NCBI GenBank assembly: GCA_963555995.3
Contig: OY821641.1
Coordinates: 1,152,001 to 1,216,000, forward strand
Origin: Vicinamibacteria bacterium
Lineage (GTDB): Bacteria; Acidobacteriota; Vicinamibacteria; Marinacidobacterales; Marinacidobacteraceae
Reading direction: 5' to 3'
DNA length: 64,000 nucleotides
The translations under genes were made by a program, and so were the position numbers. The notes under the pieces are model-generated. The model saw nothing but the letters and a program-made list of their open reading frames with translations. It was not told the DNA's origin and did not search any database. Of this stretch, positions 4,461-10,243 are shown in pieces (positions within the stretch are counted from its first letter, which is position 1; each line of letters begins with the position of its first letter).

Positions 4461-5561
4461 TTAGCCGGAGGTCTGGGGCTCCGGACGGATCGCCGCCTGG
4501 CGCAGGGCGTGGTCGGCGAGGACGAGGCAGGCCATGGCTTCCACGATGGGGACGGCGCGGGGGAGGACGCACGGGTCGTGGCGGCCCCTGGCTTCGAGGG
4601 TGACTTCCTTGCCCTCGGAGTCCACGGTCCGCTGGGCCTTCCCGATGGTCGAGGTCGGCTTGAACGCCACCCGGAAGACGATCGGCATCCCGGTCGAGAT
4701 GCCGCCGAGCACGCCGCCCGCGCGGTTCGTCTCGGTCGTCGTCGCTCCGTCCTTCATCACGAAGCGGTCATTGTGCTCGCTTCCGAAGAGGCGGGTGCCG
4801 GCGAACCCGGAGCCGATCTCGAAGCCCTTGCTGGCGTTGATCGCCAGCATGGCCTTCGCGAGGTCGCTCTCCAGCTTGTCGAAGACCGGTTCCCCGAGCC
4901 CGGGAGGGACGCCGCGCACGGAACACTCGACGACCCCGCCGAGCGAGTCGCGGGCGTCCCGCGTCCGCTCGATGAGCTCCACCATGCGGGCAGCGGCCTC
5001 GGGGTCCGGACAGCGGACCGGCGTCTCCTCCACCGCGGCGCGGGTCACGGTCTCCGGAGCCACGTCGGCCTCGATGTCCTTGGTCCGCTTCACGTACGCG
5101 GTGCACTCGACCCCGAAGCGCTCCTCGAGGAACCGCCGGGCGACCGCGCCCGCGGCGACGTGTCCCACCGTGACGCGGGCCGAGGAGCGGCCGCCGCCGC
5201 TCGGGTCGCGGATCCCGTACTTCGCCTCGAACGTGTAATCGGCGTGACTCGGCCGATAGACGGTCTTGAGCGCCTCGTAGTCGCTGGGCCGGGCGTCCTC
5301 GTTGCGGACCACCATCGCGATGGGGTGACCGGTCGTCCGGCCGGCGATCACTCCCGACTCGATGGCCACCCGGTCCGCCTCCCGGCGCGGGGTGGTGAGC
5401 CCGCTCTGGCCGGGACGCCGGCGGTCGAGCTCCGCCTGCACGTCGCCTTCGGCGAGCGGGATGCGCGGCGGGCAGCCGTCCACCACCACCCCGATGGCGG
5501 GGCCGTGCGACTCGCCCCAGGTCGTCACCCGGAAGGCCTGGCCGAGCGAGCTACCGGGCAT
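4461..5561 (-). CDS. aroC: Chorismate synthase
   Basis: [37 protein letters not shown] signatures. Confidence 0.97.
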
Positions 5562-7626
5562 CGCGAGCCCTCCGGGCGGCGTCCGCCATGGCCTCGACCG
5601 GCGCCGGCCGGCCGGTCCAGCGCTCGAAGGCGGCGGCCGCCTGCAGGATGAGCATGCGGAGTCCGGGGACGGTCCGTTTCCCCATCCCGGCCGCCTTCCG
5701 GAGGAGCGGGGTCCGCTCGGGGTGGAACACCAGGTCGAAGATCACCTCGTGGGCGGCGATCGCGGCGTCGGGGGCGGGGCAGCCGTCGTGGTCGGGCGCC
5801 ATCCCGACCGGGGTGGTGTTGATCAGGATGTCCCCCTCGATCCGTTCCAGCGCGGCGCGCGGGGCGTGCCCCACTCCCATTTCGCCGGCGAGCGCCGCCG
5901 CCTTCCGGTCGTCCCGCGAGACCACCACCGCGTCCGCGCCGCTCCGGGCCAGACCGTGGAGGACGGCCCGCGCCGAGCCGCCCGCCCCGAGCACGGTGGC
6001 GCGCCGGCCGGGCAGCGCGACCGCTTCCTCGAGCGAGCGGACGGCGCCCGTCCAGTCGGTGTTGGCGCCCCCGAGTCCGCCGTGCATCGGGATGATGGTA
6101 TTCACCGCGCCGATCCGGCGCGCGTCGTCGTCGAGCGAATCGAGCAGCGGCAGGACGGCGCGCTTGTGGGGAATCGTCACGTTCAGCCCGCCCACCCCGC
6201 TGAGGCGCGCCGCCGTCAGGAAGTCCGCGAGTTCCGCCGGGGGAACGGCGAACGCGAGGTAGGCGGCCTCGATGCCCAGCCGCCGGAAGGCCGCCTCGTG
6301 CATCGGGGGACTGAGGCTCTGCCCGATCGGATTTCCCACGACGCCGTAGACCGGGACGGGCGCGGCAAGCCGGCGTCCCCAGCGGCGGTGGCGCGAACGG
6401 GTTTCCTGCGCCGTGAGCTGCCCGCGGGCGACCGCGGGCAGCCCTTCCGGCGGCGCATAGCTGGCGAGCGCGGCGCCGGCCGAACCCGCGATGACCCTGA
6501 GCGCCCTCCCCGCCGCCCCCATGGCGATCCCGATGAAGGGGACGTCTTCGGAACCCTGACTCCGGATCAGCGAATGGACCCGCTGCACGTCGCCCCAGCC
6601 GGCAGCGGAGACCGCCACCTTGGCGATGGCCGGTTGCATCGAGGCCATCCGGCCCGGAAGCGCTTCGAGGTCCGGCGGTACGCCGTCCGGATCGTGGAAC
6701 GACGCGACCAGCCGGGCATCCGGCGCGGTCCGGCGCAGCCGGCGGGCGGCGGCGCCGCCGCTCTCCCGGAACGCCTCGAACTCGAGGTCCAGGTAGGCCG
6801 CGCCGAGCCGTCCCGCCTCGCCCAGGAGGCGGAGGCGCTCGTCCTCGCTTCCGGCGAAGCGGCCGCCCTCGCTCCCCCGCCGGACGGTTGCGATCATCCG
6901 CGCAAGGAGCGACCCCGGAAGGTCCGCAAAGATCCGGCCGAGCTCGGCCGTCCCGGGGGTTTCGAGACCGTCGAGCCGCAGCTCGATCAGATCCAGCGGC
7001 CCGCTCGCCGCGTCCGCGGTGGCGAGCCCCGCGCGCACTTCGGATGCGGCGCCGCCGGTCACGACCAGGGCGAGAGGAGGGCCGAAATGGGCGGCCAGCA
7101 GCGTCTCGACCGCTTCCGCGATCGCCTCCCGGTCCGAGGCGGTGCTCCAGGCGTCCGCTTCCGCAGCTTCCCGGTAGAGCGGGGTACGGCGTTCCAGCAC
7201 GAGCGCCACTTCCTCGGCGGGGGGGACTCCCCCCACCAGCGCCGGGCGGCGCTTCGCGTGTTTCGGACGGGAGAGCCTCTCCCGAAGTACCGCCGCCGGG
7301 GCCCGGACCCAGTACACGGTTCCGAGTTCCCGCAGCCGCGAGAGGTTTTGCGGCGTCTCGACAATTCCCCCGCCGCAGTCCACGATGAGCTGCTCGCCAG
7401 TGAGCCCCCGGAGGACCGCGCTCTCTTCTTCCCGGAATCGCTCCCAGCCGAATTGCGCGACGAACTCCGGGATCGGGCCGACGCGGGTCTCCAGCAGTTC
7501 GTCGGTGCTGACCCGTGTCCAGCCGGTCCGCTTCGCGAGCCGCCGGGAGGCGCGGCTTTTCCCCGACGCGCGGGCGCCGATCAGGACGACGTTCGGGAAA
7601 CGGACGGCCGGGCCGGACGGGGTCAT
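5551..7626 (-). CDS. Trifunctional shikimate kinase / type I 3-dehydroquinate dehydratase / shikimate dehydrogenase (AroK-AroD-AroE fusion)
   Basis: Kinase: [21 protein letters not shown]. DHQase [72 protein letters not shown]. Confidence 0.92.
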
Positions 7627-9137: not shown

Positions 9138-10243
9138 AGCCCGATCGCGCGGAGCCCCGCGTCCACGATCTCGGCGGGCAGGGGGAACGAATACGCGAGC
9201 CGTCCCCGGTCGTCCCGGTCGCGGACCCGGCCGATGTCCTCCAGCAGCACGAAGCGCGGCTCGCCGCCGCGCGCCTTCTTGTCGCTCCTCAGCGCCGCCA
9301 GGACGCGCCCGCGTTCCACCCCGTCCGGCGCCCGGACCGGAAGCCCGAGGGAGGCGATCAGCGAGTGCAGGCGATCTTCGGCCGCGGGCGCGAGGCGTCC
9401 CGCGCGGCGCGCCATCCGGCTCTCCGCGATCATGCCGACCGCCACCGCGGCGCCGTGCGCCAGGAGGTAGTCCGTCGCGCTCTCGAGGCCGTGTCCGATG
9501 GTGTGGCCGAAGTTGAGCACCTCGCGCAGCCCGCTCTCCCGTTCGTCGGCGGACACGACGGCGGCTTTGATCCGCACCGCGGCGGCGATGAGCCGGGTTA
9601 GCGGCCCGGACTCGCGGGCCTTCACGGCCCCGATGTCCTTCTCCAGGCGCGAGAAGAGTTCCGGATCGCTGGTGGCGGCCATCTTGAGCGCCTCGGCGAC
9701 GCCGTTCAGGAACTCCGGCTCGGGCAGGGTCTCGAGGAAGCGCGTGTCGGCGAAGACGGCGGTGGGCTGGCGGATCGCCCCGATGAGGTTCTTGCCGTGC
9801 GGCGTGTTGATCCCGGTCTTGCCGCCCACGGAGGCGTCCACCGCCGCGAGCAGGGTGGTGGGGATCGCCACGAACGGGACCCCGCGGAGGTAGGTGGCGG
9901 CCACGAAACCCGCGAGGTCGGTGACCACGCCGCCGCCGAACCCGACGAGCACGGTGTCGCGGCCCAGCCGGCGGGACAGCAGCTCGTCTTCGAGGCGCGC
10001 TTTCTCCGCCCGGGTCTTCGACGCCTCGCCGGACGGCACTTCGAGGACGATGGTTTCCCGGGGCAACGCGTCGCGCAGCCGGTCTCCGTGATGCCGGAGC
10101 GCCGCGGCGTCGCCGATTACCGCGACGCGGCGCCCCGCGTCGTGTTCTTCGAGAAACGCCGGAAGGCCGTCCAGCGCGCCATCCCCGACGGCGATCTCGT
10201 AGGAAACGTCCTGTCCCGGCGTCTCCACCGGAACCCGCAGCAT
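9134..10243 (-). CDS. aroB: 3-dehydroquinate synthase
   Basis: GGGVVTDLAGF, PTTLLAAVDASVGGKTG, LNFGHTIGH. Confidence 0.96.
   Translation of the reverse strand: MLRVPVETPGQDVSYEIAVGDGALDGLPAFLEEHDAGRRVAVIGDAAALRHHGDRLRDALPRETIVLEVPSGEASKTRAEKARLEDELLSRRLGRDTVLVGFGGGVVTDLAGFVAATYLRGVPFVAIPTTLLAAVDASVGGKTGINTPHGKNLIGAIRQPTAVFADTRFLETLPEPEFLNGVAEALKMAATSDPELFSRLEKDIGAVKARESGPLTRLIAAAVRIKAAVVSADERESGLREVLNFGHTIGHGLESATDYLLAHGAAVAVGMIAESRMARRAGRLAPAAEDRLHSLIASLGLPVRAPDGVERGRVLAALRSDKKARGGEPRFVLLEDIGRVRDRDDRGRLAYSFPLPAEIVDAGLRAIGL

Follow-up and report, generated by a model that had tools for sequence, protein, structure and literature searches.

A chorismate operon in AROM gene order with a predicted trifunctional AroK-AroD-AroE protein in the Marinacidobacteraceae

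The chorismate block and its three-domain fusion protein

The window analysed in the present study is a 64,000-nucleotide stretch of contig OY821641.1 (assembly GCA_963555995.3, positions 1,152,001 to 1,216,000 of the forward strand) from a Vicinamibacteria bacterium of the family Marinacidobacteraceae, phylum Acidobacteriota. It carries, on the minus strand throughout, a block of genes in the order trpE-trpG-aroF-aroB-aroA-[aroK-aroD(type I)-aroE]-aroC, where the bracketed genes are fused into one reading frame; the aro genes and their products are abbreviated below to F, B, A, K, D, E and C. A sequence-only reading of this DNA had described the order from aroF to aroC, with K-D-E as a single polypeptide, and had noticed that B to E follow each other as the domains of AROM do. 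The coordinates of the open reading frames (ORFs) and the Pfam domains bear out this order. The match to AROM holds as a gene order, the available parts of PMC6851490 giving the AROM domains as 3-dehydroquinate synthase (DHQS), EPSPS (5-enolpyruvylshikimate-3-phosphate synthase), shikimate kinase (SK), dehydroquinase (DHQD, DHQase) and shikimate dehydrogenase (SD, DHSD). In the same excerpts and those of PMC10792529, AROM is described as an enzyme of fungi and protists, and prokaryotes as possessing single enzymes and few bifunctional fusions.

The fusion ORF (5551-7626/7629) is free of stops, and its likelier start, the ATG at 7626, yields a protein of 691 aa (5551..7626), equal in length to the matching record P0004. 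Pfam places SKI at residues 20-175, DHquinase_I at 203-411, Shikimate_dh_N at 430-512 and SDH_C at 656-686, and the AlphaFold2 model has a predicted local distance difference test (pLDDT) score of 92.4 and a predicted template modelling (pTM) score of 0.92. In alignments to the E. coli enzymes, the kinase residues K23, D42, R65 and R147 and the dehydrogenase residues K488 and D524 are retained, and H311 and K336 of the dehydroquinase, which is of type I according to PF01487, align to H143 and K170; the E. coli residues concerned are those that we take to be catalytic. A single catalytic position is changed, Tyr215 of AroE being replaced by Phe634. This phenylalanine is limited to a part of the family that includes the present genome, and other genera have tyrosine. 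Kinase, dehydroquinase and dehydrogenase domains are all predicted to be active. With the AROM-type model TIGR01809 the dehydrogenase domain reaches 137 bits, below the cut-off of 196, and it passes TIGR00507. No second copy of aroB, aroA, aroK, aroD, aroE or aroC was found in the genome, and a search of the same genome (93% complete) for a type II dehydroquinase gave no match.

The possibility that the fusion is an assembly artefact, raised by the sequence-only reading, was ruled out. When a profile was searched in 28 family genomes, 27 had a single full-length match without stops, the remaining genome being 66% complete, and single contigs from three sequencing runs cross the K-D-E ORF with four to eight substitutions and zero gaps; these runs belong to one study, and the source sample is possibly among them. 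Fusion stops short of the neighbouring genes: stops follow aroB and aroA here, and B-A or A-K fusions occur in none of the 24 family loci. A sequence search with the K-D-E protein revealed no longer fusions among 7977 scored candidates, which is weak evidence.

The same three-domain architecture is known from the fungal quinate repressor (QutR type), which provided the top Atlas matches (0.93-0.96) and which we take to be a non-catalytic regulator derived from AROM. QutR-type proteins are eukaryotic, whereas the protein considered here retains its catalytic residues and is the sole source of these steps in its genome. A cluster in the Atlas, with 362 members that have SKI and Shikimate_dh_N domains, points to Bdellovibrionota.

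The fused gene is embedded in tightly packed neighbours. Type I-beta 3-deoxy-D-arabino-heptulosonate 7-phosphate synthase is encoded by aroF (10243..11310; NF006421, TIGR01361), the stop of which shares one base with the start of aroB (9134..10243; TIGR01357), and residues E184, H247, H263, K142 and K151 of the AroB protein align with E. coli AroB residues. The class I-type EPSPS gene aroA (7809..9137; TIGR01356) begins with TTG and overlaps the stop of aroB by TTGA, as reported earlier, the plus strand reading tcaa at 9134-9137. AroA retains 15 of the 16 active-site positions checked against the E. coli enzyme. The exception is Tyr22 (codon 22, about 9072-9074, minus strand), which stands in place of E. 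coli Ser23, presumably a substrate-binding residue beside Lys22; it belongs to a derived motif, PGSKYxANR, recognised in a motif survey, and is tyrosine across the whole operon lineage described below. The start of the chorismate synthase gene aroC (4461..5561; TIGR00033) overlaps the end of aroE by 11 bases, as it does in 24 of 24 family loci.

Contrary to the earlier picture of the layout, which was right about the order and overlooked a repeat, another sequence stands between aroA and aroK in this genome: an element of 179 bp (7630..7808), bounded by terminal inverted repeats, fills the distance from the aroA stop to the aroK start. Copies of near full length number 73 in this genome (G000), with TTAA/CTAG-like flanks, and the element is probably a miniature inverted-repeat transposable element (MITE), judging by its repeats and copies; a matching transposase was not identified. 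The family of repeats is about 180 bp long, some copies are tandem, and it folds into a long hairpin. In 22 of the 23 other family loci the spacer between aroA and aroK is short, and the sole long one (L051) starts with a similar repeat end. The insertion has separated aroA from aroK at this locus, that is, it leads away from further fusion.

Upstream, the conserved block is opened by trpE, encoding anthranilate synthase component I (12112..13602; TIGR00564 above cut-off), which occupies the same place in 14 of 14 family loci, followed by the trpG/pabA glutamine amidotransferase gene (11307..11870; PF00117, TIGR00566). Downstream of aroC lie lolA (3208-about 3990, minus strand), its position kept across the family, and tRNA-Ala(CGC) (3958-4033, minus strand). 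The block from trpE to lolA is complete in all 14 family loci fetched. A putative chorismate mutase/prephenate dehydrogenase fusion gene at 15470-16603 (plus strand), proposed from its translation, is divergent from trpE and adjoins it in several relatives; here a permease gene (13693-15867) stands between the two.

Relatives of the operon

Within the class, the arrangement is peculiar to the family. In the two sister families, the match to the fusion covers D-E alone in 15 of 16 genomes, with aroK located elsewhere. Of 13 aroA loci fetched from elsewhere in the class, 11 have aroK behind aroA, and ten of the 13 carry the motif PGDKS, which we take to indicate a class II EPSPS. The AroA proteins of the family are 54-85% identical to each other versus mostly 33-41% in 62 other genomes of the class that were searched.

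Fusions of shikimate-pathway genes, some of them with a kinase, are known elsewhere in prokaryotes, and the published ones that were consulted join two enzymes each. According to the accessible portions of the sources, AroDE occurs in Planctomycetes, Acidobacteria and some archaea and AroK-AroE in Methanomicrobiales (PMC11237513), and a DHQD-SK fusion is found in Clostridia (CASP15 target T1180; PMC10792529). The clostridial and Methanomicrobiales proteins are bifunctional, however, with the order D-K or without D. In the Methanomicrobiales loci L065-L118, the arrangement is aroA-[aroK-aroE]-aroC with aroD on the opposite strand. AroDE, or DHQ-SDH, of plants, Planctomycetota and Acidobacteriota (PDB 2gpt, 2o7s) has the same D-E order and is the best sequence match in the PDB, while the protein of the window has an added N-terminal shikimate kinase domain and lies inside a full operon. 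No description of prokaryotic K-D-E or A-K-D-E proteins was found in the open literature, and the supplements of PMC11237513 may list such fusions.

To place the operon more widely, genomes of GTDB were scanned with the AroA of the family, and the best 80 of 255 loci were read. Among them, one locus outside the family has the order F-B-A-K. It belongs to a deltaproteobacterial metagenome-assembled genome (L062) and is ended by the contig edge; its aroK frame is open to the contig end, with a profile match reaching 28 residues beyond the kinase. No K-D-E fusion was seen among its relatives in 40 drawn genomes or three phylum mates. A K-D profile was also searched against 1.84 billion proteins, and the architectures of the best 150 matches were read: 69 D-K, 32 D-E-K, 14 K-D, 13 K-D-E, 11 K, six A-K-D-E, three B-A-K-D-E and two A-K-D. 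All B-A-K-D-E and A-K-D matches, four of the six A-K-D-E and a few K-D(-E) were treated as pieces of AROM. The D-K and D-E-K proteins in this list indicate that these genes are also easily fused in other orders. Of ten matches looked up, three carry a taxon, with K-D-E proteins named Woesearchaeota (two) and Nanoarchaeota (one). The motif PGSKYxANR is common to both prokaryote-type A-K-D-E proteins, L062 and the family, while AROM has PGSKS instead.

A scan of metagenomes, of which the best 80 of 538 loci were considered, added 13 loci with PGSKYxANR and two of the same type with the motif out of view. Eight operons are complete, all in the order F-B-A-K-D-E-C, and they display four states of fusion: A-K-D-E in one protein (L170, L172, L176), A plus K-D-E (L173, L177), A, K and D-E (L175, L192) and A, K-D and E (L178). 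The A-K-D-E proteins (L170:10001-13270, L172:2439-5705, L176:10001-13315) are 1071-1105 aa long and directly follow an overlapping aroB; the clusters P0196 and P0199 are of this type. Two clusters of A-K-D-E proteins are named Candidatus Nanoarchaeia, and eight of ten clusters have no taxon. Neighbours of L176 and L172 include a MiaB-like-B methylthiotransferase and Elp3; L177 adjoins a response regulator, and its contig looks bacterial. Operons of the Nanoarchaeia/Woesearchaeota type (for example HLC61670.1, HLC60302.1, MBT4539942.1) share with the family the gene order, the motif and a joint clade in the trees of B, A, K, C and F, and differ in low G+C content, in variable fusion that includes A-K-D-E, and in D and E, which stand apart from those of the family. 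The open literature searched yielded no description of these operons. A prokaryotic five-domain protein was not found within the sequences searched.

The phylogenetic analyses included AROM sequences of fungi, an oomycete, a cryptophyte, an amoeba and a ciliate, with rows from the K-D profile search. IQ-TREE sets held eight to ten shorter-branched AROMs, leaving out ciliate-like and viral ones, and 41-65 rows chosen from the 223-335 available per domain. Outgroups came from Acidobacteriota, Desulfobacterota, Planctomycetota, Methanomicrobiales, E. coli, a few plasmids and other genomes; Bdellovibrionota were not identified among the rows. The operon set is monophyletic in AroA (99.4/76), AroB (96.8/75), AroC (98, FastTree), AroF (100, with only four outgroups) and the concatenated B+A+K alignment (99.8, and 99.9/1 under LG+C20, where all figures come from the best tree of an unfinished search). 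In AroK, the family nests among archaeal-type rows (87.7), and L062 falls apart from them. The family itself is a distinct long-branched clade (98.5-100). These trees show that aroB, aroA and aroK of the family group with the archaeal operons and not with the sister families. Horizontal exchange of the operon is likely, involving archaea of the Nanoarchaeia type and a few bacteria, this family included. The D-E half may have come either from the operon lineage or from native AroDE.

Origin of the operon and its relation to AROM

Taken together, the locus is rather probably the only chorismate operon of its genome, with a trifunctional protein, belonging to a horizontally mobile lineage of Nanoarchaeia-type archaea and a few bacteria that is likely to have formed AROM-like fusions in parallel with AROM. 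Several results weigh against this reading. The operon clade was not recovered in the D or E trees. In a FastTree analysis of 223 AroB rows, the family lies among other Acidobacteriota (98), and archaeal AroB alone stands beside AROM (95). In favour of the reading, a clade of family and class relatives is rejected for AroK (approximately unbiased, AU, test, p 0.036) and for AroB (p 0.002), though the constraint on the latter was run as a fast search, which favours rejection.

Part of this evidence fits a local assembly, in which the family moved its native AroDE behind an ancestral aroA-aroK pair and the archaeal likeness reflects separate replacements or transfer out of Acidobacteriota. In the sister families, the adjacency of aroA and aroK and the AroDE fusion are both in place already, the AroB FastTree nests the family in Acidobacteriota, the next relatives in AroC are three members of the class (95), and the grouping of family and class is not rejected by the AU test for E (p 0.14) or D+E (p 0.31), the best tree containing no supported grouping of the family with sister-family AroDE. 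Such an origin nevertheless appears improbable: the aroA of the family belongs to another class than that of its sisters, native origin is rejected for B and K as given above, and B, A, K, C and F all indicate one partner clade with an identical gene order.

The comparison with AROM gives a mixed picture. AROM/Aro1 (PDB 6hqv, 7u5s, 7tbv) has the same five activities in the order of the operon genes, a type I dehydroquinase and a class I-type EPSPS, and the K-D-E protein corresponds to its C-terminal module; AROM structures are the top matches of the K-D-E model in Foldseek. AROM is one polypeptide, while three are encoded here, with a mobile repeat between aroA and aroK. The predicted arrangement of K-D-E does not superpose on 6hqv/7tbv (template modelling score 0.34, root-mean-square deviation, rmsd, about 22 Å), and the prediction lies closer to plant DHQ-SDH (rmsd 9 Å) than to AROM; that the AROM comparison uses a predicted monomer belongs with the points against parallel fusion.

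In every IQ-TREE analysis AROM is monophyletic to the exclusion of the family (96.5-100). The per-domain phylogenies, named by the sequence-only reading as a check, divide: B and K lean towards AROM, A and E away from it. For AroB, the branch of AROM emerges loosely in the vicinity of the operon clade and of a patescibacterial AroB, and the union of AROM with the operon clade has an AU p of 0.25. In the best AroA tree, AROM is placed with a gene of a Streptomyces plasmid and with one gene each from an acidobacterium and a planctomycete (95.1/73), the union with the operon clade having p 0.38. In the AroK tree, L062 and E. coli AroL are the sequences that AROM groups with (p 0.12 for the union). 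For AroE, AROM joins the AroE of the actinobacterium Microbacterium (90.6/97), and the union is rejected (p 0.023), though the operon set itself is no clade for E; for D+E p is 0.076. The cluster P0088, named Patescibacteria group, is an AroF-AroB fusion according to its Pfam list, and in the concatenated trees its AroB lies nearest of all rows to AROM DHQS, a weakly supported position.

It is conceivable, if doubtful, that this pattern reflects shared ancestry, the PGSKY lineage being the living prokaryotic sister of an operon taken up by an early eukaryote, in which its genes became fused into AROM; the dehydrogenase, and perhaps the EPSPS, would then have been replaced later on one side, and the operon of the family would be a cousin of AROM and not an intermediate. 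The corollary that a surviving sister of AROM stands at successive stages of fusion up to A-K-D-E, and supplied at least the synthase and kinase domains, is to be taken as equally tentative. All eight complete operons of the clade and the family have the exact five-gene order, and the A-K-D-E proteins that directly follow aroB are one stop codon short of AROM. AROM is sister to the operon clade in the concatenated B+A+K tree under LG (81.3, 41 taxa; 93.7 with 56 taxa, including the patescibacterial row with AroB only), and the unfinished LG+C20 search placed it there too; B prefers this tree by 33 log units and K by 26, and for B, A, K and D+E the AU test does not reject the union. There are 11 near-exclusive alignment columns between AROM and the operon clade versus 0-5 with other groups, a biased count, since those groups are no clades. 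However, support for the branch drops to 5/0.55 under LG+C20, the alternative tree without this sisterhood is not rejected (p 0.216), and A opposes the AROM-sister tree by 29 log units in favour of another group. To this are added the PGSKS of AROM in place of PGSKY, the rejection for AroE, the unlike predicted packing and the absence of key bacterial groups from the tree sampling. From the sequences at hand, convergence is somewhat favoured over shared ancestry with AROM.

The sequence-only reading had seen in the locus either a partly fused intermediate on a route from operon to AROM or a convergent assembly. Such a route is visible in prokaryotes, where Nanoarchaeia have reached A-K-D-E. 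The locus itself is no intermediate: in the trees the family is never found nested with AROM or at its base, B-A and A-K fusions are absent from its 24 loci, and the AROM dehydrogenase and, in the best tree, EPSPS group elsewhere. It is hardly credible that the lineage leading to AROM passed directly through this operon, now frozen as an intermediate, or that a eukaryotic AROM was split into these three genes. The gene order would suit this, as would a split at the border of the SK-DHQase-DHSD module, which moves as one unit in C. albicans Aro1 according to the available parts of PMC9074039; the domains of the family are only about 25-47% identical to those of AROM, and the trees already contradict it.

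Candidates for a prokaryotic five-domain AROM (P0135, P0139, P0155, P0160, P0161), which came without a taxon and of which the first four had a usable EPSPS domain, all fall with eukaryotic AROM, and an Acetoanaerobium match (H2) apparently collinear with AROM has the actual order B-A-C-E. An intact pentafunctional AROM of 1453 aa in a single ORF was found on the IMG/VR contig L401:5938-10299 (plus strand). Giant-virus AROM is also present in L399, L403, L404 and, partially, L400, and most of these contigs are labelled GVMAG. The translations of the flanking genes read as putative D5 primase-helicase, uracil-DNA glycosylase, deoxynucleoside monophosphate kinase and RFC-like protein. The viral protein corresponds to cluster P0160 (65 members) and groups with ciliate-like AROMs on long branches. 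A literature search for giant-virus AROM returned no paper, and this protein is possibly more interesting than the operon itself.

Possible course and meaning of the fusions

On the favoured reading of a mobile operon lineage fusing in parallel with AROM, the gene products would work in succession: AroF, AroB, the D, E and then K domains of the fusion protein, AroA and AroC would together cover the seven steps up to chorismate, a product then used by TrpEG of the same block. The stop-start overlaps would couple the translation of neighbouring genes, and the K-D, K-D-E, A-K and A-K-D-E proteins that occur in the lineage would have arisen where the stop codon between two overlapping neighbours was lost. 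The best reading of the sequences is that this lineage repeatedly fuses adjacent genes, paralleling AROM. Fusion is likely to set stoichiometry and co-inheritance. Substrate channelling seems an unlikely reason for it, because the domain order (steps 5-3-4) departs from the reaction order and because, as the accessible sections of PMC9074039 state for C. albicans Aro1, the active sites are more than 40 Å apart with no tunnels, and AROM brings no gain in throughput.

The enzymes themselves are ordinary. The protein set would work like a partly fused AROM and is not a member of the AROM family. The AROM gene order in a prokaryotic operon lineage with two-, three- and four-enzyme fusions provides a named candidate clade for the origin of AROM. 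If the link to AROM fails, the lineage would be a natural replicate, indicating that operon order can dictate fusion order. Fused and unfused homologues stand side by side in the lineage, which would allow direct tests of what fusion buys.

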